Below are positions 3,111 to 36,300 of a stretch of 37,986 nucleotides of DNA, piece by piece. Position 1 is the stretch's first letter. Every line of letters begins with the position of its first letter. The notes beneath the pieces are model-generated. The model saw only the letters and a program-made list of their open reading frames with translations, was not told the origin of the DNA and did no database searches. The position numbers and the translations under genes were made by a program. Origin of the DNA: Rhizaria sp. SCN 62-66 (lineage: Eukaryota); the NCBI GenBank assembly GCA_001724265.1, contig MEDY01000301.1, forward strand, positions 1-37,986, read 5' to 3'.

Positions 3111-3148
<38 letters not shown>

Positions 3149-4914: not shown

Positions 4915-5582
4915 CACGCCCGTTTAATTCACGCTTGACGATGAAACTGTGTCGAGCTGGTGTTATTCACAAACTCGCCATCATGAACCCCAGCGTCCGA
5001 CCACAAACCAATGGCAAGCGACGCCGGACAAGCAGAGTAATCCTTTTAGTCAGCCTGTTTGAGTCCGACCACAGTCGCTTGCCAGCAACCAACAGCGACG
5101 AAGCTCGACGGGACCGAGAGCCTACGCACCGAGAGTCGCGGCGCTCTGTTATGACCGTCGGTGCTTTTGTAACGCAATGTGCCATGTTATGCGACGCGTG
5201 GGAAGTTATATGCTAAATATCACTTGCAGTGGCTCACTTGACGTGTTGCTATATTCTCCTTTCTTTCGCCCTTGCCTTGCCCCGCGCTTCGCAGAAGCCG
5301 CGCCCACCTTTTCCCCCAGTTTAGGTCACTCGGTTCTCTCCCATTCCGTCCTTTTCTTTCTTTTCGCGGTTTTTCGCATAACAAAAGACTCCTTTTTAAC
5401 ACTTTTTTCTTTCCCGCAGCACACCCCTCTCGCTTCCGCGCTTTCTCGGAGCCCACCGCCACAGTCGTTTTCCGTTCGCTTCTGCCCCCTCGTTTTTGAA
5501 CTTGCTCGCGTCCCGGTTTAGTCAGCATTCCAGCTGTTTTCACTCCACTCTTCACACAAACACCAACGGAAACACGCGCATA
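4915..5582. promoter_or_regulatory. Divergent (head-to-head) intergenic region with the 5' regions of the methyltransferase and PP1 genes
   Basis: Both flanking ATGs point away from it. Lower GC, with a pyrimidine-rich tract on the PP1 sense strand (about 5250-5500). No specific element identified. Confidence 0.5.
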
Positions 5583-6653
5583 ATGTCCGCAGCCATGTTT
5601 CGCGCCACCGCGACCGGCGCCCTCCCGTCCAACGCCGCGTCCCTGAACAAGCCCGCCGGCGGCGCAGCGTGGAGTGTCGACTCAGTCATCTCGCGTCTGC
5701 TCTCGCTGCGCGGCCAGCGCCCCGGCAAGGAGCTTGCGCTCACCGACGAGGACCTGCGCCAGCTCTGCACGCGCGCGCGCGCCGTCTTCCTCTCGCAGCC
5801 CATGCTGCTGGAGCTTTCCGCGCCCGTCAAGGTCTCGGGGGACCTCCACGGCCAGTACTACGACCTCCTGCGTCTGTTTGAGTACGGCGGCTTTCCGCCC
5901 GACGCCAACTATCTCTTCCTGGGCGACTACGTTGACCGTGGAAAGCAGTCGATCGAAACCGTCTGCCTTCTGCTCGCCTACAAGATCAAGTACCCCGACA
6001 ACTTTTTCCTGCTGCGCGGCAACCACGAGTGCGCGAGCATCAACCGCATCTACGGGTTCCACGACGAGTGCCGCCGCCGCTACAACGTCAAGGTGTGGAA
6101 GATGTTCACCGACTGCTTCAACTGCATGCCCCTTGCGGCCCTGATCGAGGACCGCATCTTCTGCATCCACGGCGGCCTGTCGCCCGAGCTGCACAACATG
6201 CAGCAGATCCGCGCCATCCCGCGGCCCTGCGACATCCCCGACTCGGGGCTCGCCTGCGACCTGCTCTGGGCCGACCCCTCCAAGGAGGTGGACGGCTGGG
6301 GTGAGAGCGAGCGCGGCGTCTCCTTTACCTTCTCCGCCGCCGTTGTGGCGCGCTTTCTCGCCGCGCACGATCTCGACCTCGTTTGCCGCGCGCACCAGGT
6401 CGTGCAGGACGGATACGAGTTCTTTGCCAACCGCCGCCTGGTGACGATTTTCTCGGCGCCCAACTACTGCGGCGAATACGACAACGCGGCCGCGCTGCTC
6501 TCGGTCGACGAGAGCCTTGTGTGCTCCTTCCAGGTCCTCGAGCCCAAGGAGAAGCGCCTGCCTCCGCGCATCGGCGCCGGCATCAGTGCTGGCATGGGCG
6601 GCGGCGCACACGGCGGCTCACACGGTGGCGCGGCGGGCCGGTCCCCGATGTGA
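5583..6653 (+). CDS. PP1: Serine/threonine protein phosphatase 1 catalytic subunit (PPP family), 356 aa, intronless
   Basis: All PPP motifs are present: [47 protein letters not shown]1-type context: [30 protein letters not shown]. First ATG 5583; ends in TGA. Confidence 0.97.
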
Positions 6654-7080: not shown

Positions 7081-8323
7081 GTTCCAATTTTCTTTTGTTG
7101 ATTGCTGCCTCGATTTCGCGTCATGTTTCTTGCTATCTTTTCATTGTTTGTTTGTTTCCTTGTCTCTTCTATTCTTGTTTTTCTCTCTCTATTCTCCTAC
7201 TAATACTCCTCATAATTATTATGACCACTGCACTGCTGAACTACTTTCGACAAGAGCAACAACAACAATAGCAACAACATTGGCAGCACATTAAGCACAA
7301 CAAACAATTTGTATCAGCATTTGTATCAGCAACAATACCAGCGTCGGCAATAACAACGCACGCTCATTGACACACACGCACAGTTTAGTAATCGTTCTCA
7401 CCGCTTACTCTTTTGTATTTGTTTACTTTTTATACTACTTAAGCTTATATCCTTCTCTCACATGACTAATAAGCTATCTATCAACTACATAAGCGAATGC
7501 ACTTTAGGCAAAGGCGTACTCATCTCAAGCACACAAATGACAACGACAGCAACGTCAGCCGACGATATCAACATAGTACAGCGAGCACACACCATGTTTG
7601 CAGCGACACTAGGTGCACAAGTGCACGTGTCCACGCAGGTGTGCCTGTGCGACTCTAGAGTCACTAATCGTCGCATCAGAACTGGTACTGTGTTGTTGAA
7701 GGTTGCGATGTGTTTAGTCTTTTGTTGTGTCGTGGCCAGGGGCACCGCTGTTGTATGTATCATCAACATTGCCTCTTCTGCATGATATTAGTCACATTCG
7801 CAGTCATTTCGTCTCTGTTGCTGCCAGTTGTAAGAGCAACAAAACGAATGCGAGCTAGGATTTTTCTTTTTCACTATTACCTCAATCAAACATCAAAATA
7901 TCACCCTTTTACTTTTCTTTAGGTTTTTTTCAGTTTGTTCTTATGCCTTAGTTTGGCTATTCGCTGTTTATTTCTCGAAATACATTTATCTTTACATCAT
8001 ATTCCCCATTTTTTAATGCTATCTCCAGTGTGTCCCTTGGTACGACGGCGACTCTGCGTCTGCTCGTAGTAAAAAAACGGCTCTCTCATGAGAACCATAT
8101 GCAGCAACCGCTATCGGCCGTCTTTTCATCAAATAGCACACGATCCAAATAATAACCGCATTATAGATATTACAATTTAAATAATAGCTCACAAATTTGC
8201 TGTACTCACCCCAGAATCCCCACAGCTTTCTTCTCCGTTAGACGCGTCTTGGTTTCCTCCTCGAGCGCTTCTTTCCCGTCCCACTTGCTTCCCGCCGCAC
8301 CTCCCGCGCGTCCTGCCGCGGCC

Positions 8324-11300
8324 ATGGTCCCGATGGATGCCTCCCGCCCATCTTTCCACACGAATTTACACTCGCAGCGCGTGCGCGCCCAACGCGCTGC
8401 CGCTCCCGCCGCGAGTGCTACTATTAACCCCACAGTCACTCTGACTGCGAATCAGGCCGCGCGCGCGCTGCCACTGCTGACGCTCGCGCCCGCGCCGACC
8501 GAGCCGGCCCCCGCGGCGTTTCGCGCACCATCCCTGCGCGATCAGCACCTTGCCCGCCGCGCGCGCGCGCAGCAGGCCGCCGCCGAGGCCACTTCTCCGC
8601 GCTCCGCCGCCGCCCGCGCCGCTGCTGCCGCCGCGGCCGCCGCGGCCGCCGCGAACGAGGCCGCGCTCGCCGCCCTGCGCACGCGCACGCTGGGCGCCGA
8701 GGAGCGCGCGCTGCTGGCCCGGGCTGACGCCGGCTTTGCCCGCGAGGAGGCCGAGCGCGCGCGCTTGCAGCGGGAGAAAGAGCAGGCTGAGGCCGAGGCA
8801 GCTCTCGCGCAGGCCATGTGCGCGCGCTCGCCGCCGCCCGCGATCCCCAGCGGCGGCTCCAACAGCAGCAACAGCAACGGCGCGGGCCCGTTGAGCGCGT
8901 CTTCGTTCCAGCCGCAGCAGGGACCCGCAGTGCCCGCGCTCGCCGCCGTCTCTGCCCTCAACACCGCGAGCGCGAGCTCTAGCTCTAGCTTTCGCTCGAG
9001 AGTGTCGAGCGGTATCGAGCGCGGCGCGCAGCAGCAGCAGGAGGACGCCGAGGCCGAGGCCGAGGCCGAGGCGGAGGCCCTGAAGCACCGCGCGCAGACA
9101 CAGGCGCGCGCGAAGGCAGCGCTCGCGGCGGCCACGGCGGCGGGCGGCGGTGGCCCGACATTCTTCACGATGCAGGAGGACGAAGACGAGGACGAGCGCG
9201 GGAATGAACATGAGCTGCAGCAGCAACAGCAACAGCAGCAGCAGCAAGGGCAGCGCGAGCAGGAGCAGAGTGATCTGGCGAGTGAGAGTGTCGCAGGCAC
9301 TCAGGGGCAAGGGGGCATGTCCGCGACTGGGTTCTCAGCTCACAGTCACTACTCTAACGCGACTGGGCAAGGGGCGGGAGCGAACGAACAGTCTAAGGGG
9401 GGTGACGCGGGTTTAAGCGGCGCTGACCTTGCGGCTAGGTCTCATCCAGCTGTCAGCATCGACTGTGGTGACCCTTGGCTGTGGCTACAACAACAACAGC
9501 AACAGCAACAGCAACAGCAGCAGCCAAGCTCGAGCACTTCTGCCGTCAACCTGGCGAACAGTGCCGGCAGTGCACCGTACGCCATCATCTTGCCCACGGC
9601 CTCCTCCGTCTCCGCTCTTAACAGCACTGCGACGGTGACCACCAACGGGCTCGCCGGCGCTGGCACTGCCGTCGTCGTCGGCGTCAGCACGGCGACGCTG
9701 CCAACCGCGCTCTCGGTTGCGTCACGCGTCGCCGTCAGCGGCACCGTTGTCCCCCTTTCTCAGTCACACTTACATTCGCAGTTTCAGTCGCACGCACAGT
9801 CGCCGTCGAACGCACGCTTTGCGCACGCACAGTCTAGCGGCAGCAGCGGCCGCTCTGACGCTGAGACCGAGGCCGAGGCCTTTGCGTTTGCGCAGACGGC
9901 CGCCGCGCCGCCAATGCCGGTCTCCGCCGCCGCCGTCGTCGCCTGCCGCTCTTTCCTCACGGGCGGCCTAACTTCGGGCCGCGCTGGTCTAAGTGCCGCC
10001 CAGATGCCCACTTACACGTTCAACGGCGTGCCGACGACCGCGGCGTTTGCGGCGACGCACGCAGCTTTGTCGTCGGCCGCCGCCGCTGCCGCCGCCGCGC
10101 TGCGCCGCCGCGGCGGCACAAGTGCGCTATCGGTGCTCACGGTCAGCGAACGCGCTGCGCTGTCGCCGCCGGTCATCTTGCCTCTGCTGCAGCCGCCCGC
10201 AACAGCCGCTGCCGCTGCCAATACGACCGCTGCTCAGCGGCCTGCGTCGGCCGCAGTCAAGGCGAGTTACAGTGCGAGTGGCCCGGGCTCGAGTGTGGTG
10301 TCGGCGCTGCTGCTGGCGCTGTCGCCGTGGCGTGTGTCCGTGGCCGCCGTGCCTGGGGTCCGCGCCGCCAACGAGGACACCGCGTCGGCGCGCGCGCGCG
10401 TGGGCGGCGCCGTGGCCCGCCACGGCGCAGCTCTCCTCGCCCTTTCCAGCAGCGGAGATGCGGGCAGCGCGCAGCTCGCTGGTGCGAGTGCGAGTAAGGC
10501 GGAGACGGCCGCGGCGGCGGCGGCCGTGGCCGGCGCGGGCGCGCGCTGGCTGCGGCAGGCCCGCGTCACCGTGGCCACCGTGGCCGCGGCAGAGGACGCT
10601 AAACTCACCGCTGCGGTTGCGTTGTTGCGTGAGAAGGCCGCCAAGGCCGCCGCCGCCGCTGTGACCGCCGCGGCTGCTGCGACCGCGACGGCGACCGCGG
10701 CCGCGGACATTGAGCAGGGTGACAGAGTCGCTGTGGCCATGATGCGGCGGCTGCTGCAGATGGAGGACAAGGCAGCGCCCTTCCGCGTCCCCATCAACAC
10801 CGGCGTCGCTGCATCTGTGGGCTCTTCTGGTGCTGGCACGAGCGCGGGCGTCAGCTCTGGCTCTGGCTCTGGCTCAGGCTCTGGTGTCTGTGTTGACGCC
10901 GGCTTAAGCGAAGGCGGCGGCGGCGGTGGCGGCGGCGGCGGCGACGGCGATGACGACGACGACAACGTCAGCGGTCACAGTGCACGCGCAAAGGCGTCTG
11001 GTAAAGACTTCTCAGGTCTCAGCAGCAACGCTGCCAGTGCTTGTGCCGAGGGGGAGACTGCTGCTGCCGTTGCCGCTGCTGCAGTAAGCGCGAGCCTGAC
11101 GTCCATCACTGCAGTGTCGGACATGACGACGGAGGCCTTCGACCTCTGGCTCTCGCAAAACACGAGCAACAACTGCAACGTAGCCGCCACTGCCGCCGCC
11201 GCTGCTGTTGTGTCAGCTTCCGTTGACGACGTTGACGACGACGTGAACGCCCACGCCAGCGGCAAGCACTCGAGCGCCACGCCTATCGCGCTGCTGACCC

Positions 11301-14300
11301 GCACGCTGTCCGCCGCGGTCACGTCGGAGGTCGACGCCCTTGCGGCCGCATGGATCAAGACCAACACCACGCGCCTCGCGCTCGCGGCCGCCCACGCGCG
11401 CGCCGCTGCCGTGGCCGCCGCGGGCGCCGCGGGCGCCGCCGCGCTGCTCTCGACGGCGGCCGCGTGCCCGGGCGTGTGGTCATGGTGCGCCAACGCGACC
11501 TTCGCGAGCGTCGACAGCGCCGACGAGTGGGACGTCAACGAGGCGCTGCTCGACGTCGGCGTCAAGCAGCGCCTGCCGCTGCGGTTGCCGCGCAGCCAGA
11601 GCATCGCGGTCCAGGACGGCGACACAGAGGTCGAGACGGCGCCGCAGCAGAGCAGCCAGGGCTTTGCACAGCAGTCGTCGAGCACCCTTGGCTCTAGCTC
11701 TAGCTCTAGCTCGAGCGTCGGTGCAAGTGCGCATTTCACGTCTGCTTTGCCGTCGTACGCGTTCATGCTGACGCCGCAGCGCGCTATCGGGACCGGCTTA
11801 AACTCAGCAGGCGGCTTGACTTCCGCGCCCGGCAGTCCGTCACTGGGGCCCGCGCTGTCCGGAGGGCCGGGCTTGCCCCTGCTGGTGCCATCGCTGTCGC
11901 AACCGTCTTTCAACGCCGGCAGCAACAACAGCAACAACCTCGCGGCTCTCAACGCCGCCATGAGCAGCAGCGTTGATGTGACGATGCTGCCGGACACGAT
12001 GCCCGCGCTATGGCGCATTGGCGGCTTGACTTTCAGCGCCATCTACAGTCTTGCGCTCGTGGCTGGCCTCGCCCCGCCGCCGCCGCAGCCGCGCCGGTTG
12101 CAGCAGGCGCAGTATCAGACGGGCACCGGCAGCCCCGGCCGCGCGTTCGGCCTCAACAACGCCGGCAGCGGAACGTCGGTGCTGTCGCGAAGCGCTAGTA
12201 ACTCCAGCATTGCGAGCAGCAACGCATGCTCTAGTTCTAGCTCTAGCAGCAGCATTAGTAGCAGTTCGCTCGTGTCGGCTTTCACCCGCGACGAGCTCGC
12301 CCTTGCGTCTCTGTCCGCGCCGCTCGTTGCCGCCTTTGTCTACAGCCGCCTCGGCGCCGTCTCTGCGGCCGCGCTCGCGCCCTCCGCGCCGTGGGTGGCC
12401 GCGCTGCGGACCGCGTGCGCGACGGCGGGGCTCGGCCGCAGGTTGCTGGCCGCCGCGGCAGAGGCGGGCGCGCGCGACGCGTGGCTCGGCGTGCGGCTGC
12501 AGTGGCGCAGGGCGCCCTTTATCCCCTTCAATCGCGAAGGCAGCAACAGCAATAGCGACGAGAGCGAGGACCCGGATGAGGGCTCCAGCTCAACTTTTGC
12601 GAAGAACGCGAGCGGTGCTAAGAGTGCAGTGCCGATGTCGATCGCCCCTGCGCCCTTGTCGACAGCGGCTGAGACGCGCTCTGGCGCCGGCGCCGGCGTC
12701 GGAGCCGTGCTGTCTGCAGCCGGGCTGATGGGGCCCAGCGGCTTGACTTTGGGCGACGAGGTGCTCCGTGCCGTCGAGGCCACACAGGGCATGCGCGAGA
12801 TTCGCTACAAGCAGCAGCAGTTGCAACAACAGCAAGAGCTGTTGCAGAAGCAGCAGAAGCAGCAGCCGGAGTCAGAGCGACAGCCTCCTGCAGAGGGGCG
12901 TTTGGAGGGATTTGATCTGACTGGTGCAGAAGAGACGTCGACGAATAATGCCATTAACAGCAGCAACAATAATAACAGCGCTCTAGGGATTGTGTGGCCG
13001 TCGTACACGCAGAGTCTAAGTACTCCCTTAGCCATGCTCGCCAGCGCCGGCCTGCGCCCCGACCCCGTGCTGTTGTCGTCAACCCGCAGCCTCAGCGGCC
13101 CGCTCGCGGCGACGGCAACCGCCGCCGTGGCCGCCGCCGCCGCGCTCGCGGCCTCGGTTGCCGCGGCGTCCGCCGTCGTGCTTGCCGACGCCACCGCCGA
13201 GCGCGTGTGCGCGCGCGCCGCGGCCGCGGTGAAGGCGGCGCAGGCGCAGGCGCGGGTGGCGTATGAGATGCAGCGCGCCGCGTTCGACGTGAACAACACC
13301 GCGTTTCACTCGCTCGGCAGCGGCGACGGGGACTACAACACCGCGATGGTGCTGGTGCCAGAGCACGAGCACGGCAGCCACAGCACGACCAGTGTCAGTA
13401 GCAGCGGCATTTCTCAGGGCTGGGACCCGCTTGGTGCGAACGCCCTCGTCGTCAAGCTCGACAACACACTTTCGCAGCAGCAGCAGCAGCAGCAGGAGCA
13501 GCTGTCCCGGCCGCAGTCCCAACAGTCGCAGTTTCAGCTCCAGCTTCACGCTAGCAGCAACAGCAGCAGCAGTAGCAGCGGCGGCGGCGCAGTCGTCGAC
13601 GCCAGCACCGACTCCGAGGCGCTGCAGTCGCTGCGCACCTCCGTTGCTGCGGCGGCGCGCGCGCTGAGCACCGCGCAGCGCGGTTTCGCGGCGCGCACTC
13701 TTGCGGCCGACGCTGGCGCCGCGCGTGCCGCGGCCGAGGCCCGCGCAGGGGAGCTGGTCGCGGCGCTGGGGGCGCAGGCCGAGCGCGTGCGCGCCGCCGT
13801 GCGCGCCGCGCAGGGGCAGCGCGCGCAGGCGCTTGCCGCGGTCGTCGACGGGAAATGGGGCGAAGTCGTTGCGCTCTGGGGCAAGCAGGTCATTGGTGCC
13901 GGCGCCAATGCCTCAAGTGCAGCGTCGTTATCCTCATCGTCGTCGTCGGCGTTGTCGTCGGTGGTGGTGCCGCTTACGGGCGTTGCCGCGTCGCTGAACC
14001 TTGTCTCGATGTCGACCGCGGCTGCGCCGCCGCCGCCGCCGCTGCTGCTGCGGCTGGTCTGGGCCGCCGCGGGCGCGCTGCTCGGCTGGCGCCAGACTGA
14101 CTGGGCATCCGCGCTCTCCAACATCGCCCTCTACGACCCCGCGCGCACTCGGATCAACGGCGCGAGCGATAACACGAGCTCTAGCGTGTTGTCTGGCTCG
14201 GCGTCGGTTGCGCTGATCGACACCAGCGGCAATGTCACGACTGACCGTGACGTCACCGCTGTCAGCGGCGGCGCGCGCGCTGCGTCGGGCGCGTTGCGCG

Positions 14301-15466
14301 GCTCGCTGCTCGATAAGCTCACATTCGAGCTTGAGACTGAGGCCGCCGCTGCTGCCGCTGCCGAGGCTGAGGCGGAGGCTGCGGCGGAGGCTGAGGCTGC
14401 TGTTACGGCCGAGGTTGAGGCTGAGGCTGAGGCTGAGGCGGCCACATCCGCTGCGGACGCAGCGCGCGCTGCTGGCGACGCTGCGGCCGCGGAGGCTCTC
14501 TTGCACGCCGCCGAGGCCGCCGCCGCGAAGGCTGAGGCAGCCCGCGCGCGCCGCCACAACTCTACAGAGAGACTCACACTCAGCCACAGCCAAAAACACA
14601 GCCGTGTCGGTGCGAGCGGCGCCAACGTTGGCGCAGGCGCCACGAATGGTCGCAGCAGCACTGCGTGCGCGTTTTCACGGTTCCGCACCCCTCTGGCGCG
14701 GCAACTCGCAGCGCTGGATCCTACCACGGTCACTGTCTCCGGCCTAGCCGCTGCGGAGACGCTGCTACGGGAGCCATCGCTGAGTCTGCCGGCCGTGGCT
14801 GCGCTGAGCGAGGCCTCCGCCGCGGTGCTGGCGTGGGCCGTGTCGACGGTCGGCGCAGCGCAGGAGTGGGCGCGCGCGCACGAGCGCTTGCTGCGGGCCG
14901 CGCGCGCGACTGTGGCCGCCGAGCTCGCGCCGTTTGTCGAGGACGCCAACGCCGCGGTCGAGGCGGCCCAGGAGGCCGCGGCGGAGGCGAAGGCCGCCGC
15001 TGCTGAAGCTGCCGCCGCCGCCGCCGCTACCGCCGCTGCGACTGGTGGGAGCGCCAACGCTGGAGCAGTGCCTGCGCTGCTGCCGCCGCTGCGGCCCGCG
15101 TCTGCGTCTGCGGCGGCGAACGCCGGCAGCGTCAGCGGTTTCAGCGGCGTCGGTGGCGGTGCGAAGCCCTTCCAGCGCTTTGTGTCGCTATCTAACAACG
15201 CTAACGTTCCCGCAAGCACGAACGCTAGCCCTGCTTCATTTAGCCAACCGACAGTAGGAAATGATGGCGATTTTGCAGCTACAAACCAGGCGTATGCGAA
15301 CGCTGGCGGTAAGCGGACGCTGGCGCCTATCACCACGACGACGGCAACTGTTGCACCGAATACCATGGGCACTGTGACTCTCGGCGGCGAGCAGGTGAGT
15401 CGTGTCGACTTCTTTGCGGCTGCGGAGGCGAAGTTTAAGGCCCGCTCTAAAAAGCTTCTTGGCTAA
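8324..15466 (+). CDS. Giant low-complexity protein (~2380 aa) with coiled coils and a C-terminal dynein stalk/microtubule-binding-domain-like region
   Basis: 7.1-kb stop-free frame. First ATG is in a GCCATGG context at 8324, and TAA is followed at once by AT-rich DNA. Segment 13820-14890 resembles dynein MTBD helices (see findings). The CDS is firm; the domain call is less so. Confidence 0.85.
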   Translation: MVPMDASRPSFHTNLHSQRVRAQRAAAPAASATINPTVTLTANQAARALPLLTLAPAPTEPAPAAFRAPSLRDQHLARRARAQQAAAEATSPRSAAARAAAAAAAAAAAANEAALAALRTRTLGAEERALLARADAGFAREEAERARLQREKEQAEAEAALAQAMCARSPPPAIPSGGSNSSNSNGAGPLSASSFQPQQGPAVPALAAVSALNTASASSSSSFRSRVSSGIERGAQQQQEDAEAEAEAEAEALKHRAQTQARAKAALAAATAAGGGGPTFFTMQEDEDEDERGNEHELQQQQQQQQQQGQREQEQSDLASESVAGTQGQGGMSATGFSAHSHYSNATGQGAGANEQSKGGDAGLSGADLAARSHPAVSIDCGDPWLWLQQQQQQQQQQQQPSSSTSAVNLANSAGSAPYAIILPTASSVSALNSTATVTTNGLAGAGTAVVVGVSTATLPTALSVASRVAVSGTVVPLSQSHLHSQFQSHAQSPSNARFAHAQSSGSSGRSDAETEAEAFAFAQTAAAPPMPVSAAAVVACRSFLTGGLTSGRAGLSAAQMPTYTFNGVPTTAAFAATHAALSSAAAAAAAALRRRGGTSALSVLTVSERAALSPPVILPLLQPPATAAAAANTTAAQRPASAAVKASYSASGPGSSVVSALLLALSPWRVSVAAVPGVRAANEDTASARARVGGAVARHGAALLALSSSGDAGSAQLAGASASKAETAAAAAAVAGAGARWLRQARVTVATVAAAEDAKLTAAVALLREKAAKAAAAAVTAAAAATATATAAADIEQGDRVAVAMMRRLLQMEDKAAPFRVPINTGVAASVGSSGAGTSAGVSSGSGSGSGSGVCVDAGLSEGGGGGGGGGGDGDDDDDNVSGHSARAKASGKDFSGLSSNAASACAEGETAAAVAAAAVSASLTSITAVSDMTTEAFDLWLSQNTSNNCNVAATAAAAAVVSASVDDVDDDVNAHASGKHSSATPIALLTRTLSAAVTSEVDALAAAWIKTNTTRLALAAAHARAAAVAAAGAAGAAALLSTAAACPGVWSWCANATFASVDSADEWDVNEALLDVGVKQRLPLRLPRSQSIAVQDGDTEVETAPQQSSQGFAQQSSSTLGSSSSSSSSVGASAHFTSALPSYAFMLTPQRAIGTGLNSAGGLTSAPGSPSLGPALSGGPGLPLLVPSLSQPSFNAGSNNSNNLAALNAAMSSSVDVTMLPDTMPALWRIGGLTFSAIYSLALVAGLAPPPPQPRRLQQAQYQTGTGSPGRAFGLNNAGSGTSVLSRSASNSSIASSNACSSSSSSSSISSSSLVSAFTRDELALASLSAPLVAAFVYSRLGAVSAAALAPSAPWVAALRTACATAGLGRRLLAAAAEAGARDAWLGVRLQWRRAPFIPFNREGSNSNSDESEDPDEGSSSTFAKNASGAKSAVPMSIAPAPLSTAAETRSGAGAGVGAVLSAAGLMGPSGLTLGDEVLRAVEATQGMREIRYKQQQLQQQQELLQKQQKQQPESERQPPAEGRLEGFDLTGAEETSTNNAINSSNNNNSALGIVWPSYTQSLSTPLAMLASAGLRPDPVLLSSTRSLSGPLAATATAAVAAAAALAASVAAASAVVLADATAERVCARAAAAVKAAQAQARVAYEMQRAAFDVNNTAFHSLGSGDGDYNTAMVLVPEHEHGSHSTTSVSSSGISQGWDPLGANALVVKLDNTLSQQQQQQQEQLSRPQSQQSQFQLQLHASSNSSSSSSGGGAVVDASTDSEALQSLRTSVAAAARALSTAQRGFAARTLAADAGAARAAAEARAGELVAALGAQAERVRAAVRAAQGQRAQALAAVVDGKWGEVVALWGKQVIGAGANASSAASLSSSSSSALSSVVVPLTGVAASLNLVSMSTAAAPPPPPLLLRLVWAAAGALLGWRQTDWASALSNIALYDPARTRINGASDNTSSSVLSGSASVALIDTSGNVTTDRDVTAVSGGARAASGALRGSLLDKLTFELETEAAAAAAAEAEAEAAAEAEAAVTAEVEAEAEAEAATSAADAARAAGDAAAAEALLHAAEAAAAKAEAARARRHNSTERLTLSHSQKHSRVGASGANVGAGATNGRSSTACAFSRFRTPLARQLAALDPTTVTVSGLAAAETLLREPSLSLPAVAALSEASAAVLAWAVSTVGAAQEWARAHERLLRAARATVAAELAPFVEDANAAVEAAQEAAAEAKAAAAEAAAAAAATAAATGGSANAGAVPALLPPLRPASASAAANAGSVSGFSGVGGGAKPFQRFVSLSNNANVPASTNASPASFSQPTVGNDGDFAATNQAYANAGGKRTLAPITTTTATVAPNTMGTVTLGGEQVSRVDFFAAAEAKFKARSKKLLG

Positions 15467-15610
15467 ACAACTAGTTCTTGGCGTTGCTGATGTGCAATTA
15501 AGAATGTATTCTTGTTCTATATAACTTATAAATACTATTTAGCAATTTTAATTAAATAACAATACATCCGTTATTATTCACAACAAAGAGTATTCGACGT
15601 TACTCGTCGT
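15467..15610. terminator. 144-nt AT-rich spacer between convergent stop codons (shared 3'-end formation region)
   Basis: Abrupt drop in GC between the TAA ending at 15466 (+) and the TAA at 15611-15613 (-). Exact poly(A) sites are not identifiable. Confidence 0.5.
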
Positions 15611-20763: not shown

Positions 20764-22155
20764 ATGCCCATCGCCGTGGCCGTGCTAGGATACGCGCTCA
20801 GCTTCGTGCTGGGATATGCCGTGCTCGCGCGTGTGAGCGCCAAGCTCCAGCAGCACCAGGCTCGCCAGCAGCAGCTCGCTCTGCAGCTCGCACAAGAGCA
20901 GCAGCTAGAGCAGCAGCAAGCGCAAGAACAGCAGCAGCAGCAGCAACAGCAGACAACGCGGCGCCGCGGCAAAGGCTCCGCTCGCTCTCCAGCCAGTGCA
21001 CCTGCTGCTGCAACTCAGGCACAGGCTCAGGTACAGCGACAGCTACAGCTGCAGCTGCAGCCGCAGTCGCTGTTTGCCCGCTTGGTGACGCTGCTCGCCG
21101 ACGCGCTCTCTCTGCTGGCGCCGCCGCCGCCGCCGCCGCCCGTGGTCCCAGTCCCTGTCCCAGTCCCTGCCCTTCCGGTCACTGCGCCGGTCACTGCGCC
21201 TGCGGCGGCGGCGACTGCTGGGAGCTCCCAGTTGCAGTCGCCGTCGCAGCCTGAGGCTAACCCCGAGGCTAAGCTCGAGGCTAAGCCCGAGGCTCCGGCT
21301 CCGGCTAACGAGCCTGATGCTAAGTTTGAGCCAGAGCCCGAGTCAAGGCCGGAGCCTGAGTCAAAGGCTGAGCATAATGCGCCCAAGTCTTCAGCAGAGC
21401 CCAAGACTGATGCTGATGCTGAGGCTAAGGCTGACGCTAGGCCTAAGCCCCAACCCCAACCCGAGGCCCATGAGGCTGCTGAGCCCAAGTCATCTGAGAC
21501 TCAGTCGAGCACTGCCCCCTCTGTTGCTGCGATATCTGTTGCCAGCAACAACAGCAACGGCGGCAGCGACACCGGCCTCCCTGTCGCCGCTGACCCTGCC
21601 GCCGCGCCCGCTCCTGCGGCTGCCGATGCGTCCTCCAGCCCGGCTCCGTTTCTCGGCCCGGCCCCGTTTGTCGGCCCGGCCGCGCCCCCCTCAGGTCCCG
21701 GCTCGCTGCCGCTGTCACTGCAGTCCGCCGCCGCCGCCGCGGGGCTCGGCGCGCTCTTGCTGGCCTCCGAGCTGGACCTCTCCTCGGCCTCGGGCTCTGG
21801 CTCCGCGTGCGACTTCGCGGCCGACTCGCCCGTGATCCCCGCTCACGCCGACGCCGACGCCGACACTGCCGCCGACGCCGTTGCCGTTGCGGGTGCCTCC
21901 GTCGCGCTCGCCAACAGCGCTGCGGCCACTGAGACGGTCGCCGTGGCCGCGATCGGCGCCGCAAGCGCCGCCGTAACCACCAGTACGCGTGACGGTGCAC
22001 GTGACGGTACACATGAGGACAAGCCGCTGCAGCTGCACCTCTCGCCGTCACAGTACCAGCAGCATTTGCAGCAACAGCAGCTCGAGCAGCAGAGCAGACC
22101 CGCCGCTCCCAGTCACCAAAGCATTCGCACAGCAAGCGCAAGCACGGTCTCTAGC

Positions 22156-22196
<41 letters not shown>

Positions 22197-23776
22197 TAGT
22201 TCTAGCGCTAGCACCGGCACGGGCAGCGCCCGTGGCAGCTTCAGCGGCAGCGGCGGCAGCGGGCCGCCCAGGACCCCCACCTTCAAGCCCAATGGCAACG
22301 GCAGCGCCGGCTTTGGCAGCAGCACAAACATCAACATCAACTGCACCAGCAGCAGTGCTAGCGCGGTGGCCGCTGGCCCGATGGCTGCGCTGCGCCCGCG
22401 TATGACCCCGGCCTCCACGCCGACAGCGGCCTCGCTCGCCGCTGCGGCGGCCGCGGTGGCGGCGGCGGCGGGCTTCGGCGGCAGCGGCCCCGCCAACACT
22501 TACTGCGGCAGCGGCAACAGCTACAACAACAACGCCGGTCTCAGCAGCAGCGCGCACAGCCGCAGCGGGAGCGCGAGCGCCGCCGTCGGCGGCGCCGGCG
22601 GCGGCGCCGGCGGCATGGCCGTCGGGACTCTGAGCCGCAGCGGCAGCGTCGCCGTTGGAGGCCGCTCCCGCAACGTGGCGCAGATTCTGGACCCGGAGTC
22701 GTACGACAACATCGTCAACAACGTGGGCGCCGCCTGGGCGGACGAGTTGGCGCCGTTCAGGCTCGCCTACGACCCGTCGCCGCCCGCCGCCGCCGCCATC
22801 GCCGTCGCTGGCGCCGCCGCTAATAGCGCGGCCCACCAGCACTTGCAGCACGGCCACGGCCACGGCCACGGCCACGGCGGCGGCGTCAATAGCGACTCGC
22901 CGGGCCAGTCCCACCACAGGGCCAACAGCGGCAGCGGCAGCGCCAGCGGCAGCTTCGGCCCCCACAACAGCTCACACGTCCGCGGCGGCAGCGACGCCAG
23001 TCCTGCCTACGGCTTCGGCTACGGCTACACCTCCGGCAGCGCGGTGCGCGGGCGCGGACGCAGCCACAAGCCGTCTCAGGGCAGCAGCGGCGGCAGCGAC
23101 GCGGGCAGCGTCACCCGCGGTAGCGGCAGCGTGCACGGCAGCGGCAGCGGCAGCGGCGGCGGCGGTGGCGGTCACAGGGCCGGCAGACACGCCGCCGACA
23201 GCGGAAGCCGCGGCCGCAGCAGCACCGCGGCCGCCGAGAGCGTGCGCGCAGCAGCCAGCATGAGCTTCCGCGCGGCAATCACGGCGGCGGCCGCGGCGGC
23301 GACGGCGGCGGCGGCGGGCGCGGTCGCCTTCAGCCATAACCACGCGGGGCTCGGCGCCGGCGGCGGCAGCAGCAGCGCCAACAGGATCGGCCGCGCCTTT
23401 GCGTCCGCGCGCGCCGCCGCCGCCGCCGCGCCGGCCGACGCCGCGGGCATGGGCGCCCCGAACGGGAGCTCGAATGCGCGCGGCAGCAGAAGCACCAGCA
23501 GCAGCGGCAGCGGCAGCGGCAGCGGCGGCAGCGGCAGGACGAGCGCCGGCGTCCGCAACGCATTCGCCGCCAATCGCGCGAACATCAACAACAACAGTAA
23601 CAACGAGTCGTGCATGTTGGACGGCGGCTACTCCAGCCGTTCTTCGAGCCCCATCGACGCGCTGTCGCCGTTCCAGCTGGCGCACACGCCCATCACGGCG
23701 GGGGCTGGGCTAAGTACCGGGCTAAGTACCCCCTTAGCCGGCCCCAGCGCCCGCGCCGCCGCCCGCAGCACCTCTG

Positions 23777-23807
<31 letters not shown>

Positions 23808-26800
23808 CTTTGGCTCTGGCGCGAGCGCGGTCGGCCCCCGCGGCAGCGTCAGCGCCAGCGCCAGCGCCCGCGCCCGCGCCCGCGGCAGCGTCTCCGCGGC
23901 CAACAGCGCTGCCGCACCTCGCAGCGACAGCGAGGCCGCCGCGGCCACACCCGCGGGGCCGGGGCTGGCGCTGGCGCTGGCGCACGTGGAGCGGCAAGTG
24001 CACGGCCCCCCCGGGCTGCGGCTGGGGCTTGGCGCGGCGCCGCTGCGGCCCCGGCTGAGCGGCGGGCTCAAGCGCGGCAAGAGCATTGCCAACAACATGA
24101 ACGGGTACGCAACAGGCACTGCGAACGCCAACGCAAAGACTCACTCGAGTTCTGGCTCCGGCTCTGTGTCGGGCTCTGTGTCGGGCTCCGGCAGCGGGCT
24201 GGAGGCCAGCGACGGTAACGCCAGCGGCGGCGCCGGACTGAACCCGCGGCGCGCGCGCATTCGCCCCGGGGACGCGGCCATCGCCGCCGCGGCCACGGCG
24301 GGCGCGTCCGCCATCGTCGCTGCCGCCGCTGCCTGTGGCGCTGCGACCGCCGCCTGTGACGCCGCCGTCGCCGACGCCGTCGCTCGTGCGAGCGCAGACG
24401 CGACGAGTGGTGGCGCGGACGCCTTAGAGAGTGAAAGCCTCAAGACTAGCGGCACCGCTGCTGTTGACTCCAGGGATCTTGACTCCGCTCAGGATACCGA
24501 GCCTGCCCACGGCCACGCTGCCCACGGCCACCCTGCCCACGGCCACCCGCACCCGCCGATGGTGACCCTCCACGGCGGCGACAGACCGGGCCCTGCCCAC
24601 GGCCACCTGGCCCCGGGCCTCAGCCACAGCGGCGGCCACGCGGCCTACCGGGGGCGCGCGCACGCCCGCGGCGGCTACACTAACGCGCACGCGCACGCGC
24701 ACGCACTCGCACAGGGTCATGGCCGCGGGGCGGGGACTGCGCACTCGTTGTCGTCCTCGCAGTCGCAGTCCCGCTCGCGGTCGCGCTCACGGTCCCGCTC
24801 GCGGTCGCGCTCGCGCGGCCGGGCCACAGACGCGCCGCTCACGACCGACGGGCTTGCTGCGGGCTCGGGCGCCTGGGACAGTCTCGCCAGCCTGGCCCGC
24901 GGCGGCCCCGCGGACGACACGGACGCCGACACCGTTGCCACGAACGCAACCAACCACACGAGTAGCAGCAGCAAAGACGCTGCGGGCGCGTTGCTGTACA
25001 GCCCGCGCAGCGACTCCCTCGCCGGCGCCTTCGGTCCGGGCCCCGTCTCGGTCTCCGGCACTGACAACAGCAACAGCATCAGCAACAGCAACAACAGTAA
25101 CGGCGTCAACAGCATCAACAGCGTTAGTAACAGTAGTGCGAGCACTGCCGGCAGCACCGGGCTCGGCCCGAGCGCTCTCGGCCCGAGCGCTCTCGGCCCC
25201 AGCGCTCTGGGCCGCACCGCAAGCGGCCGCATGGCCGGCACGCTCACCGGCGTCGGCGCTGGCGCTGGCGCGGTGAGTGGAAGGACGCCACGGCACAGCA
25301 TCGCTGGCTCCAGCGACGTTTACGTCGGGCTGGGGGGCCCTCTCCCCGCAGCCCCCGGGCTCCCGGGGCAGCACACCGTCGACGTCAGCCACCTGTTCCG
25401 CGCCAACTCGAGCGACGCGGCCGCCGCGGGCGCCGAGGGCGCCGAGGACGCCGCTGCGACTGGGACGCCCGCGCTGACGCCGACGCCGACGCTGGGGCCA
25501 TATGCGACCCCGCGCCTGTTGCCGCTGGCGCAGGCGCAGGCGCAGGCGCAGGCGCAGGCGCAGGCGCAGGCGCAGGCGCAGGCACAGCAGCTGCTGCAGC
25601 ACCAGCAGCAGATGCACCAGTTCGTGTCGGCCGCCATCCACGGGCCCGCGGGTTCGTATCGCACGGACGGCGCGCTGCTGCAGCGCCAGCAGAAGGGTGC
25701 GCACCTCTTCTACTCTCAGCAGCAGCAACAACAGCAGCAGCAGTCAGCTCCGCAGGCTCCGCTTGCAGCCACGGCCATCACTGGTGTGGTAACCGGCACA
25801 GTCCGCGGCCCGCCGACCGCGACGCCCGCGAGCAGCGTCCGCACCTTCGGCAGCAGCAGCAGCAGCGGCGGCAGCAGCGGCGGCGTCAGCGGCGGCGGCC
25901 TCGCTCACGGGAGCATTCGCACCCCTCCGGCGCAGTCGCCGGACCTCACCGCAGTTTCCGCCGCCAGCAGCGCCGCGACCAATATCAATAACAGCGGCGG
26001 CCACACGAACCCCAAGACGCACGCCGGAGCGAACACAGTCGTCAACTTGGCCAGCAGTAGAGTCTTCAGCGGCTCCAACGGCGACTTGGCGGGCACGTTC
26101 GGCGACGGATACACCGGCGACGGCGACGACGGCGACGACTTCGTGCAGCACCACCCGCTCCTGGCGCACCCGGCTTCGCTGTCCCCCGCCACGGCCTTCC
26201 GCCCGCCGCTGCCCGCGCGCTCGCGGCCGCCCTCGCTGCCCGCCTCCGCCTCAGGCTCTCCGCGGCCCAGCGCGCGCGCTTCCCCGCGCCTCTCCCCGCG
26301 CCTCTCCCCGCGCCTGTCGCCGCGACCGTCGCCGCGGCCGTCGCCGCGGCCCAGCGCGCGCGCGTCGTCTCCGGGCCCGTCGCTGCACTCGCACCACCAG
26401 TCGCCGCATCAGTCGCCCCAGGCCTCGCCCCGCGCCTACGGCGCCCACGGCGCCCACAGCGGAGGCTTCGGGGGCCCCGGGAGCCACGCGGACCACGCGT
26501 CGCCGCGTCTGCGGCTGCGACCGTCGTCGGCGTCGCGCCTGGGGCTGCCGGGCGCGGTCCGCGTCTCGCCCATGCCCGCAAACGCCATCGCCACAGGGAG
26601 TCATGCGCCGCTTTTGCCGAGCACCGCCGTCGAGGCCGCTGCTGGGAACGGCGACGACTCGACTGCTGCTGCTGCTGCTGCTGGGACTGGTGACGCCACC
26701 GCTGCGCCGCCACCGCCACCGCTGCAGTCGCAGTCGCTGGTGCCGCTGACTGAGACCGAGACCGAGGTCGAGGACTCCGCGTTCGCACAGCAGCAGCAGC

Positions 26801-27242
26801 AGCAGCAGCAGCTGGTGCAGCCGCCCAGCTCAGAGTCTCTGCTGGACCAAACCTTCGACGCTGCTGCCGACGGCGGCGGCGATGACGGCCAGGCTCAGCA
26901 GCGGCCGCCGTCGCCGCGGACGGTGCAGCGACGGCAGCTCAAGGGCACCCCGTTCCCCTTTGCCGCCGAGGCCGGCGGGGGCAGCGATCTGACGCAGGCG
27001 CAGGCGCAGGCGCAGACTCGCGCACAGACGCAGGCCTACGCACTGCTGCTGCACAGCCTGCGCATCCGCGGCGCGCTCGCCGCCGCTGCCGCCGCCGCCG
27101 CTGCCGCCGCCGCCGTGGCCGCCGCCGCCGCCGCGCGCAGTGACGCCGGCTACAGCCACGGCCACGGCCAAGGCAGCGGCAGCAGCAGCAGCGGCCGCCG
27201 CCACCGCCACCGCTACGGCACCGACTCCGTCGCCGTCCCAGT

Positions 27243-27298
<56 letters not shown>

Positions 27299-30200
27299 AA
27301 GTCGACAGCACGGGCTCGCAGACCGGCTCGCAGACCGGCGGGTCGCGCCGCACGCGAACCGGTACGAGCACGGGGACGGGCGCGGGCAGCGGCAGCGGCA
27401 GCGGCAGCGGCAGCGAGCGCGGCGGCTCGCGGTCCTCGTCGCGCGCAGGCACTCTGGACTCCCGCACTGGCACGCCCGCGAGCACCTTCAGGCGCGGCCC
27501 GCAGCGAGAGCTTGAGCAGCAACAGCAGCTGGACACGCCGGCGTCGCAGGCGGACTCGCAGCAGACCCCCGAGCAGCTGCAGCGCGCGCTGCAGCAGTCG
27601 GTGTTCCAGCCCTCGCAGCCCCCGCAGCAGACCTCCGACGCCGCGGTCGACTCGCCCCGCGTCGCGTTCGCGCGCTACGATGCTATCAGCGGTAGCACCA
27701 GCAGCAGCAGCGGCGGCGGCGCCGGCGCCCTGGGTCTGGCCCGGATCGCTAGCACCAGCAGCACCAGCAGCTCGAGCAGCAGCGGCGCTGGCGCCGCCGG
27801 CTCCGTCGGCAGCAGTGCGCTCCGCACCAGCGCCAGCGCCAGCGCCGCCACCAGGGGCGCGCGCGCGGCCTGGGCCGACCAGCTCTCGCAGCTGCAGCTG
27901 CTGCAGCTGCAACAGCAGTACCAGCAGCACGCGCAGTCGCAGGCGCCGTCGCAGCTGCTGCAGTTTCAGTCGCAGTTGCAGCCGCCGCTAGACTCCGACA
28001 GCGGCCTCACGTCTTCCGCCGGCAGCTCCGGCGCCGGCAATGCTGGGGCGACGCTGTTCTACACTCCCCCGCCCTCGGCCGCTGCGTACGCCGCCGCCGC
28101 CGCCGCTGCCGCTGCCGCTGCCGCCGCGAACCCGAACCAGAGCCAGGGTCAAAGCCAGAGTCAGAGTCAGCAGCACACCGCCGCGGCCGGCGCGAGCGCC
28201 CACCGCTTGCAGTCGTACCCGTCGACTGGCTCCACTTCCTCCCAGACGTCGCCGGCGCAGCCGCCGCCGGCGCAGTCGCCGCTGGCGCCCCATAGCAGCC
28301 TCACCGGTCTGGCCGCAGCCGGCCCCACCGGCTCTGGCGCCGCTGGCGGCGGCTACGGGCTCGGTCTGCAGCGCGGCCTTGCCTCCGGCGCTGTCGCCGT
28401 CGTCGGCGGCCCCGGCCTCGGCGCTGCCCCGTGCGGCCTCACTGGCGTTGCCACGGGCGGCGGCCTCGCTAGCGCCGGGCTGAGCGCCGGCGTGGGCGTG
28501 CCTGCGGGTGCGGGGACGTCGCCGCCGCTGCGCCTGCGGTCTGTGTCCCCGCCCTCGACCGCCGCGCTCATCTCGGCCATGGGCGCGGCGGCCGCGGCGG
28601 GTGCGTTTAGATCCCCCAACGTGCAAGCGCCCGGCGGCAGCCTCGCGGTTGGCGCGGTGGCTATGTCTGTGCCCGGCGCGCCGCGGTCGCAGCCGGGCAG
28701 CTCGCGCACCAGCAACAGCTCGGCAGTCAACAGCATCAACATCAACAGCATCAGCAACAACAACGCACCTGCTGCGACTGAGCACGAGCGTCAGAGCGCC
28801 GCAGCCGCAGCCGCCGCCGCAGCCGCCGCCGCCGCCGCCGCGGAGACCGCGTCGCCGCTGCCGCTACCGTGGCTGCCGCCGTCGCCGTACCCGACGTTCG
28901 CGCCGCTGCTCTTCCCGCACCTGCGGCGAGTGCCCCTAGCGGCGCGCCTCAACGCCGCGCGCCAGTCGTCGCTGGGCTCGTCCTCGTCGCTGCTGGCGGC
29001 CTTTGTGCTGTCGGCACAGCGCGACGTCGTCACGCGCGCCTTTGTCCCGCTGCCGTTTCACACGCTCGCCGCGGCGGACCCCAACGCGCCGCTGCCGCCC
29101 ATGCCCGCGGCGGTGCCCGCTGCCGTCGCCACTACCGCGGGCTTCGCGTCCACGCTCTACGGCAACCACGGCTACGGCGGCTACACCAACTGCGGCGGCG
29201 GCGTGAACATGCCCAGCGGAGGATATGGCAACGGCCACAGCGGCTCTGCGCCGAACGTCCCCGGCGTCGGCAACGCGCAGTGCGACGGCACGTACATGCT
29301 TGACGCCTCGCTGTTGCCGCATGTTTCGTCCCCCGCGGCCTCCGTGGCGGCCGCTGCCGCGGCGCACGCCGCCGCCGCGCTGGCCGCCCCCGCTCCGCCC
29401 CACCACGGCGGCCACAGCGGCCACGGCGGCCACGCGCTCGGCGACGCGTTCGTGAGCGTGCCGATCTTGTCAGCGCCGGCGGGGTCCGCGCTGCACGCGC
29501 TGCCGCGGCCGCTATGGGGAACTATGGGCCGTTCGAGCAACCCGGCGCACGCGCCCGCGCCCGCGCTCATCGCGCCCCCACTGCCGCTGCAGTACGCGCT
29601 GCTCGCCACGCAGGCGGCCGCGCTGCTGCGTTCGCTGCCGCTCACGCCCGAGACGCCGCCGCTGACATCGGCCAACGACGTCTTCGGCGTCGTCACGACC
29701 GCGACCGAGGCCGGCGCCGTCGTGACTGTGGGCGCGCCAGGCGCCAACACTGCCTGCGGCGGGGCCGCGGGCGGCGGGGCCGCGGGCGGCGTGGCCGGCG
29801 GGAGCAGGACTGTGAGCGCGCTCTCGATCGTGCCGCTGCTGCATCCGTGCGTGGGCGGCGTCGACGCCGTGGCCGCGGCGGTCGACGCAGTGCTCGCGGC
29901 CACCGACGCCGCAGACGCTGCCGCAGCCGCCGCCGCCGCCGCCGCGGCCGCCAACGCCCACTCCGGCCTCGCGCTGGCCCCGGGCCACGGCACCGCGGGC
30001 GCGGAGCTGGCCGCGGCGACGGCGGCTGCGCACGGCCACGTGGCGCAGGCGGCGCAGGCGCGGGCCGCGGCTGTGGCCGGCGCGGCTGCGGCCGCTGCGC
30101 TCGTGTCGCCCACCAGCAACATGCACGTGTCCCAGCAGCTGCAACAGCAGCAGCTGCAGCAACAGCAGCAGCTGCGGCAGCGGATGCCGACGACGGCGAC

Positions 30201-35381: not shown

Positions 35382-35420
<39 letters not shown>

Positions 35421-36300
35421 TAGCTCTGCGGCTGCTTCGAACACTGCCAACGTGGCCAACACTCCCAGCGGGAGCAACGACGCAGCTCCCGCCAGCGACG
35501 GCGGCGGCAGCGCCGCGGTCGCTGCCGCCGCGAAGCCCGCCGCGGCCCCGAGCAGCGGCGGGCTGTGGCGGCAGCTGGTGCAGCCCGCGTGGGACATCAA
35601 CCTTGAGTGCAATCTGCGCTACTGGCAGCGCGAGAAGCGGCTGCTGGAGGAGCGCAAGGCCGCCATCGAGGCGGCGGCGCGCGCGGCCGCGGCCGAGGCC
35701 GAGGCGATTGCGCGCGCGCACGCGTACGCGGACCACGCGGACGATGAGGAGACGGATCTCGACGGCGAAGACGAGGACGAGGACGGCTACGGCAGCAGCC
35801 GCGGGTACGACCACGAGTTCGGCAGCGAGTTTGACGGCGAATTCGACGGAGAGGGCGAGTTTGGCGAGGGCGACGGTGAGGACGAGTTTGACTACAGTGA
35901 CAGCCAAGACGAGGAGGATCGAGGTGAGCTCGATGTCGAGAATGACGAAGAAATCGACAAAGATGACGATAACGATGACGACGAGGCTGCTGCACTGAAC
36001 AAGGATAACGACGACGACGCAGTCCTCACCAAGAACAACGTGCAGCGCAGCGACGGAGCCCTCGACGTCGATGGCGGCGGCGACGGTAGTGAGGCCAGCG
36101 ACGCCAACAGCAGTGCTCATAACGACTACTCAGTGAGCGAAGGCGACGACTTGAAGCACTTCATCAACGCGAACGCGAGCCACAGCAGCCGTCGCCCGAG
36201 TGTGACTGCCGCTGCGACTGCCGCTGCAGCTGCAGCTGCGGCAGCGACCGCCGCCGCGGCTGCGGCCGCTGCCGGCAACAGAGGCCCGGGGGCGAGCTAG
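20764..36300 (+). CDS. Giant class I 3',5'-cyclic nucleotide phosphodiesterase, 5178 aa (5218 aa to the TAA at 36420 if TAG is decoded)
   Basis: YHNQRHAVDV (33598-33627), HDVGHPGTNN (34651-34680, PDEase I signature), ATDL, AADVGHP, EFFAQGDKERELGLP, QLGFI, NLRYW. Hydrophobic N-terminus and acidic tail. 15.5-kb stop-free frame from GCCATG. Confidence 0.93.
25528..25587 (+). repeat. (GCGCAG)10 coding hexanucleotide repeat, poly-(Ala-Gln)
   Basis: Directly visible; the last unit is GCACAG. Confidence 0.9.
27247..27294 (+). repeat. (GGC)16 coding microsatellite, poly-Gly
   Basis: Directly visible perfect run. Confidence 0.9.

Follow-up and report, generated by a model that had tools for sequence, protein, structure and literature searches.

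Can the microtubule-binding domain (MTBD) of dynein be carried by a protein that has no motor? This domain is usually discussed only as the end of the dynein stalk, whose helices slide, driven by ATP, and thereby set the domain's affinity for the microtubule. The question is raised by a 37,986-bp stretch of DNA (contig MEDY01000301.1 of Rhizaria sp. SCN 62-66; 'the window' in what follows means the whole of this stretch), which holds a single open reading frame (ORF) of 2405 aa (8249..15466, +) with an MTBD-like domain near its C-terminus. An initial annotation, whose length of 2380 aa corresponds to starting this ORF at its first ATG (8324), had read this as a non-motor protein with a dynein MTBD. 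The domain is very probably homologous to the dynein MTBD, in a highly diverged form, a reading backed both by hidden Markov models (HMMs) targeted to the MTBD and by the neighbours returned in a blind language-model search. We give a probability of about one in two to the further proposal that it is a passive docking module for microtubules or tubulin, the motor-less descendant of an MTBD within a 2405-aa single-exon protein.

The protein has no AAA+ motor and is not a dynein heavy chain. As the initial annotation had noted, there is no Walker A motif in the 2405 aa (regular expression [AG]xxxxGK[ST]). No AAA Pfam match is found in it, and there is no similarity to the dynein motor when it is scored with a 2123-position HMM, prepared from 12 full motor regions and spanning the ~1900 aa upstream of the MTBD through the stalk (best score -14.7 bits). 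Nor can a motor be added from flanking exons within the window, since the gene upstream is unrelated and the downstream ORFs lie on the opposite strand. Elsewhere in the ORF no Pfam domain is found; the protein is very rich in Ala, Ser and Gln, with many low-complexity runs.

The domain consists of two blocks, separated by a large insert and set between helices, all on the + strand. A long helix resembling CC1 of the dynein stalk (residues 1790-1877, 13616..13879) is the part most strongly conserved with the one homologue found, P0005 (below). It is joined to H1 by a first low-complexity insert of 48 aa (residues 1878-1925, 13880..14023), mostly missing from P0005, which has ~17 aa there. The H1-H2-like block (residues 1926-1959, 14024..14125; pattern PP..L..V..A...LLG....DW.SA.) was identified using hhalign and HMMER, and the H3-H6-like block (residues 2148-2201, 14690..14851; pattern L..LD...V....L.....LL..P.L....V...S.A...VL.W.) using the MTBD HMMs. 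Between them lie 188 aa (residues 1960-2147, 14126..14689). Because two HMM matches bracket this insert (HMM positions 30-57 end at residue 1957 and positions 63-115 start at residue 2148), it is placed in the H2-H3 loop, the 'flap' or pre-H3 site. A short CC2-like helix follows (residues 2202-2226, 14852..14926), kept in P0005 up to '...AEL'. Three peptides quoted in the initial annotation are in frame in this ORF: QALAAVVDGKWGEVVAL at 13826-13876, APPPPPLLL...WASALSNI at 14024-14125 and LARQLAALDP...GAAQEW at 14693-14869.

The same order and spacing are found in the MTBD of dynein, the central part of PF12777, of which solved examples include 3ERR, 3J1T, 6RZA, 6RZB and 2RR7. There H1-H2 reads PP..V..V..A...LLG....W and H3-H6 reads L..[YL]D...[IV]....L.....[YL][IL]...P.[FL]....V...S.A...[LV]..W; helices likewise stand directly before and after the domain, and insertion likewise occurs at the H2-H3 loop, the axonemal flap site. 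The window protein differs in having no AAA+ ring, linker or tail, and in falling below the Pfam threshold.

For comparison, reference sequences were fished from metagenome contigs using a degenerate DNA motif for PPxxVxxVxEAVC, the H1 motif. Most of the 118 loci obtained encode textbook dynein MTBDs, many in ORFs of 3000-4300 aa, and PF12777 was present in all four of the long ORFs tested (E 1.5e-15 to 6.9e-57). Three sets were prepared: a stalk-plus-MTBD alignment of 31 sequences (A3); an MTBD-only HMM, mtbd.hmm, from 42 of the 44 sequences with a complete MTBD; and div.hmm, which draws on MTBD units that are divergent or motor-less (14 rows, including two duplicates). A full stalk HMM (dynMT) gave marginal scores only, its best decoy being poly-Ala aligned to CC1, and therefore the MTBD-only models were used. 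The decoys were 560 100-mers cut from the six-frame ORFs of the window, together with 20,000 shuffles. Six-frame ORFs of the fished loci served as decoys for H3-H6 only; for the H1 region they are contaminated, the loci having been selected by the H1 motif. Two short GC-rich metagenome contigs, L102 and L043, carry very divergent Ala-rich MTBD-like sequences (e.g. '...GRLCAWVVAV') that may be intermediates between canonical dyneins and the window domain; L102 is included in div.hmm.

These tests, which are targeted and not blind, single out the H3-H6 block. Using mtbd.hmm it scores 10.5 bits in the window protein (E 2e-5) and 12.0 bits in P0005 (E 7e-6), in a gapless alignment of 50-53 residues over HMM positions 77 to 126 or 129; the scores are reached by none of the 560 decoys (maximum 4.2) and, for each sequence, by none of 20,000 shuffles. 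Using div.hmm the scores are 14.7 bits (E 1e-6) and 17.0 bits, again with no decoy (maximum 2.1) or shuffle reaching them, while the reversed sequence gives -1.8 bits and none of 4868 non-MTBD ORFs of the fished loci attains 14.7 bits. The model that includes motor-less units, those of the P0006 family and L006 (below), gives the window protein a higher score than the model made from canonical dyneins.

The H1-H2 block is weaker. With mtbd.hmm the window protein scores -0.5 bits, reached by 16 of the 560 decoys and 436 of the 20,000 shuffles, and P0005 scores 1.3 bits (3 decoys, 41 shuffles); with div.hmm the scores are 3.9 and 1.9 bits, reached by 8 and 22 of 20,000 shuffles respectively. Run on the whole 2405-aa protein, div.hmm gives exactly two matches, and these are colinear: residues 1929-1957 on HMM positions 30-57 and residues 2148-2200 on positions 63-115 (full-sequence E 4e-5). 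The pattern is the same in P0005 (E 1.3e-6), and there is no match in P0002, the 5178-aa neighbour in the window. The MTBD pattern that the initial annotation had drawn by eye therefore stands above chance in its H1-H2 and H3-H6 parts under the MTBD-only HMMs, less strongly in the former; the first block it quoted (QALAAVV...VVAL, read as 'AL..L...I.EL') is aligned with confidence by no profile.

Of the 14 dynein positions in H3-H6 that carry most information, nine are matched, with the same residue in the window protein and P0005, among them the Asp, the Ser and the invariant Trp, and the positions matched to dynein coincide with those conserved between the window protein and P0005. Over the whole domain, the PP at the start of H1, the H2 Trp, the Asp after H3, Ser-x-Ala and the invariant H6 Trp are present in both homologues, identical except for Ala -> Val in P0005.

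P0005 was the only protein found at E<=0.001 when residues 1789-2294 were run exhaustively with phmmer against 1.84 billion representatives, and no dynein was among the matches. This fragment of 478 aa, of metagenomic origin, matches at E 4.6e-40 with 56% identity in the matched stretches; it comes from a 3431-bp contig and is the one member of its cluster. None of 8000 candidates (1322-4209 aa) proved to be a homologue in a word-indexed search with residues 1780-2405, a word-based search with alignment A1 returned P0005 itself only, and none of the 122 and 277 pattern-matching stretches from an A2 scan of metagenome and genome contigs was confirmed as a relative by tblastn.

With its much shorter inserts, P0005 was used as a natural insert-poor ('insert-stripped') version of the domain. 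The blocks common to it and the window protein are the long helix (residues 1790-1877), PPL.LRLVWAAAG.LLGWR.T.W, LYDP, GS.LD.L.FE.E, the block from H3 to CC2 (PLARQLAA.DPT.V....LAAA..L.EPSL.L.AV.ALS..SA.V.AWA..TV.AA.EW..AH.RL.RAAR..V.AEL) and three islands in the C-terminal tail. Block identity is 47-56%, all length differences fall between conserved blocks or predicted helices, and the inserts diverge by whole-codon multiples. Beyond '...AEL', P0005 turns Pro-rich and the window protein stays Ala/Glu-rich. The flap-site insert, 188 aa in the window protein versus ~96 aa in P0005, has two small elements kept in both, LYDP (14129-14140) and GSLLDKLTFELE (14300-14335), and contains an (EA)n microsatellite, found by TRF as (GAGGCT)n at 14363-14439. 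The second of these elements resembles the dynein H3 pattern 'FL..L..YD' with a shift of one residue, and may be a duplicated or alternative H3.

Profile alignment using hhalign agrees in position. Window and P0005 together against A3 give a single match, that of the window's 'AAPPPPPLLLRLVWAAAGALLGWRQTDW' to dynein 'PPxxVxxVMEAVCILxG....W', at the expected position (P 0.029, probability 1.7%). When P0005 is the master and the alignment threshold is permissive, the match is colinear from CC1 through H6 (score 25.4, P 0.018). As single sequences P0005 scores 24.3 and the window protein 23.1, to be set beside 34 natural 478-aa decoys from window proteins (mean 13.25, sd 1.87, maximum 18.8), none of which reaches 22.8. 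With cheap gap extension the scores become 44.6 and 43.9, attained by none of the 34 natural decoys and none of 60 shuffles (maximum of the shuffles 29.6).

Blind all-family tests comprised Pfam and PDB searches, both negative (below), and the language-model search. In the latter, P0005 residues 95-320 were compared with the 7.7 million clusters of the ESM Atlas. Rank 1 is an unnamed cluster (0.90), rank 2 a cluster with PF12777 in 25% of its members (0.89) and rank 3 'Dynein heavy chain coiled coil stalk domain-containing protein (Fragment)', with 34% PF12777 (0.88); the ten best family-carrying neighbours all belong to the PF12777 family or clan. The tool rates such scores as leads only; even so, this blind search names exactly the family proposed beforehand. 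The window's own 506-aa segment gave no usable match in the Atlas.

The initial annotation had also likened the flanking helices to CC1 and CC2 of the dynein stalk, and this was borne out in part. Helices do stand before and after the domain in a low-confidence AlphaFold2 model of P0005: residues 11-105 before it, with a predicted local distance difference test score (pLDDT) of 70-84 for about residues 11-60, the only part modelled with some confidence, and residues 269-315 after it, at low confidence, including the CC2-like helix. A long dynein-like stalk is unsupported, because the conserved CC2-like helix has only ~25 aa and lacks the CC2 proline; dynein stalk helices are roughly 100 aa long. 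No Pro occupies the V.PK position of CC2 in either homologue. At the dynein spacing, 26 residues before PP, P0005 has a Pro and the window protein a Gly. No significant similarity to dynein stalk CC1 or CC2 was found for the flanking helices. A six-helix fold, and any hairpin of the flanking helices, is putative.

How might such a protein work? The MTBD-like bundle would attach a large, mostly disordered protein to microtubules or tubulin, in the manner of the dynein MTBD, which occupies the intradimer groove of tubulin, and the large insert at the flap site, in which two islands are conserved, may add contacts. Without an AAA+ ring there would be no ATP-driven stalk sliding to toggle affinity, and with no ring and no registry shift any microtubule binding would thus be constitutive or otherwise regulated. 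A flap at the H2-H3 loop is present in many axonemal dyneins; in DNAH7, as described in PMC6629372, it has 13 residues, compared with 188 aa here, and touches the neighbouring protofilament.

Several observations weigh against this proposal, some bearing on binding and others on homology itself. Those of the first kind favour the main rival, in which the fold is truly derived from a dynein MTBD and does not bind microtubules, serving instead as a protein-protein or structural module in a large disordered scaffold; we think this somewhat unlikely. The domain has lost residues that dynein conserves: both the E and the C of EAVC, the Arg that follows the H6 Trp, the Tyr downstream of H6 and the proline of CC2. 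Its pre-H3 site holds a huge insert of variable length. There is a precedent in DNAHX, whose variable disordered pre-H3 insertions are read by the authors (PMC11785096) as disrupting microtubule binding. DNAHX/DNHD1 are dynein-derived, thought to be non-motile, and have disordered, length-variable insertions in the stalk and MTBD, including the pre-H3 site, as in the window protein; they are nevertheless full-length heavy chains that keep the six-AAA ring (PMC11785096), whereas the window protein has zero AAA similarity. On the other side, the basic residue between two hydrophobic positions of H1 (the R of 'LLLRLV'/'LALRLV') is kept in both homologues, the insert itself includes two conserved islands, and no alternative partner is known; moreover, the DNAH7 example (PMC6629372) indicates that a structured flap at the same loop can add microtubule contacts.

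Observations of the second kind bear on whether the resemblance is one of chance, an Ala-rich, helical, low-complexity protein having come by a dynein-like spacing of hydrophobic residues, Pro and Trp with no common ancestry. Standard searches of Pfam and the PDB and with hhalign yielded nothing significant. The Pfam check that the initial annotation had proposed was negative: PF12777 (gathering score 24 bits) was absent at E<=10 from the whole protein, a 390-aa segment, the 688-aa C-terminal part, three sub-blocks and P0005; as HMMER filters drop most weak matches, this excludes a clear match only. No dynein appeared in PDB sequence searches (phmmer and hmmsearch) with the segment, P0005, the A2 and A4 profiles or the H3-H6 block alone; the matches to Med15, Csm3, a galectin fusion and a depolymerase were rejected as low-complexity or spurious. 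The hhalign P-values are only 0.015-0.045 (probability 1.7-3.1%), and with cheap gaps the margin is thin and the null heavy-tailed, the best natural decoy scoring 39.4 against 43.9 and 44.6. Under the full stalk HMM the H1-H2 block is undistinguished, 108 and 183 of the 560 decoys scoring equally well. The reverse test is weak too: HMMs made from the two query sequences retrieve dynein MTBDs as only three of the top 25 with H3-H6 (best E 0.18) and have little discriminating power, while the roughly 10 of 25 retrieved with the H1 block, an apparent success, are to be expected, since the H1 motif had been used to assemble the database. Language-model scores of 0.88-0.90, with 122-146 shared features, are in the tool's 'lead only' range. 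Structure prediction leaves the fold unconfirmed: the Atlas model of P0005 matches nothing above a template-modelling (TM) score of 0.34, its neighbours (TM 0.19-0.34) being from unrelated families, and AlphaFold2 with P0005 and the window row gives a mean pLDDT of 43.6, below 50 across the domain. Finally, the hypothesis was made by eye and tested on the same sequence, carries an unquantified multiple-testing burden over families and positions, and was confirmed by no blind all-family search.

Common ancestry is nonetheless the better account, and chance resemblance seems to us improbable. With two different HMMs no shuffle or decoy attains the H3-H6 score, P0005 as an independent homologue scores higher still, the second block lies in line with the first and is rarely equalled among shuffles, the matched positions are those kept between homologues, and the blind language-model neighbours are PF12777 clusters.

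That the ORF is a decaying, pseudogene-like relic of a former dynein heavy-chain gene with no present function is very improbable: the extreme low complexity with its microsatellite expansions, the loss of several conserved residues and an N-terminal 1800 aa with nothing recognisable would suit it, but the frame is open over 2405 aa, the blocks are conserved in a second organism while the inserts diverge by whole codons, the sequence is present in a polyA RNA library, and no trace of an AAA module marks a recent dynein origin.

The RNA in question comes from a polyA metatranscriptome (X5), contigs of which are colinear with the ORF at eight listed places (e.g. 13645-13934 and 15334-15534) with 0-2 letters differing; parts of the ORF without such contigs are uninformative. 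Joints and loose ends of the contigs matched to the ORF were considered as introns and rejected: they fall in low-complexity repeats and are present in DNA runs too.

On targeted statistics, the window appears to hold a known domain in much diverged form, in the unusual setting of a protein without a motor. Other predicted carriers of an MTBD without AAA+ modules were found among the fished loci. P0006 (L107:260-2077, +) is a complete 605-aa ORF with PF15479 (DUF4639, E 6.8e-15), two tandem MTBD units and no AAA+; the units score 118.5 and 73.3 bits with the MTBD HMM, and Pfam MT matches at E 2e-20. The same architecture is found in two homologues, P0007 and P0008 (606 and 548 aa), which gives a family of 548-606 aa. 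Nearly all of the 60 PDB rows listed for P0006 can be recognised, by name or otherwise, as MTBD constructs or dynein heavy chains; among them is a chain of 4069 aa that bears the label 'putative malate dehydrogenase 1B'. No papers were found for 'DUF4639' in the full-text literature. L006 (L006:300-1262, +) is a 320-aa ATG-to-stop ORF, apparently motor-less, in which Pfam MT matches at E 6.2e-12 over profile positions 90-211; the gene that comes next, anoctamin/RSN1-like, is unrelated. Unlike the window protein, the P0006 family and L006 pass Pfam MT easily, are short and are not low-complexity. P0006-P0008 combine DUF4639 with two tandem units, whereas the window protein has one unit and no PF15479 match; hhalign of the window protein against the P0006 family gives P 0.11. 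As an example of an MTBD protein without a motor, P0006 is a far clearer candidate than the window gene.

Beyond the CC2-like helix, the C-terminal tail of the window protein (15077..15463, +) has three islands conserved in the alignment with P0005: LLPPLRPASASA (15077-15112), KPFQRF (15164-15181) and the last 21 residues (15401-15463). These last (R.DFFAAAEA..KAR...LLG-stop) are kept to the very C-terminus, and the sequence between islands is not kept. The islands have no Pfam match, and no family was found for them.

ORF-rich stretches of the window at 65-77% GC alternate with stretches of ~50% GC, and both strands carry very long uninterrupted ORFs. Three genes are readable: 5496..6653 (+), the MTBD-like gene at 8249..15466 (+) and 20764..36300 (+). 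The first is an intron-less PP1-type Ser/Thr phosphatase catalytic subunit (Metallophos 2.6e-45, STPPase_N 7.2e-18) with an N-terminal extension of ~60 aa, and is a useful marker that the contig is eukaryotic. The third, P0002, is an uninterrupted 5178-aa ORF at 65-77% GC, extremely rich in low-complexity runs, in which nothing is recognisable except, towards the C-terminus, a class-I cyclic-nucleotide phosphodiesterase domain (PDEase_I 3e-66, within 32764-36297). An 874-aa ORF on the opposite strand (2293-4917, -) has no Pfam domain except a low-complexity match; it contains 'LDVGCGHGRD', which we take to resemble motif I of SAM-dependent methyltransferases. No tRNA genes or Rfam families were found in the window. 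Its DNA is present in metagenome runs from bioreactors, wastewater and activated sludge, and the host is read as an uncultured, GC-rich, intron-poor eukaryote from wastewater and bioreactor metagenomes.

No description of a non-motor MTBD protein, or of a class of such proteins, was found in the full-text literature searched (subscription journals and supplements excepted), and none is among the term matches in a 2026 review of microtubule-associated proteins (PMC13406575). One tentative possibility is that the dynein MTBD is portable and has parted from the motor on several occasions; the window would then hold a functional copy that has a hugely enlarged, partly conserved flap, sits on the tip of a short hairpin and anchors a giant disordered protein to microtubules independently of ATP. 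Taken with the P0006 family and L006, this copy would mark out a class of microtubule-associated proteins that use the dynein MTBD without being motors. Eroded MTBDs split by inserts escape the long stalk-plus-MTBD model of Pfam and are caught by a short MTBD-only model, and motor-less MTBD proteins may therefore be under-counted. If the reading is correct, an MTBD copy selected in the absence of an AAA+ ring would mean that the domain works as an autonomous microtubule-docking unit, and it would offer a natural experiment on which residues serve the fold and which serve regulated binding, and on the effect of very large insertions at the flap site. An eroded grip domain without its motor suggests that the dynein MTBD may be reusable as a stand-alone building block.

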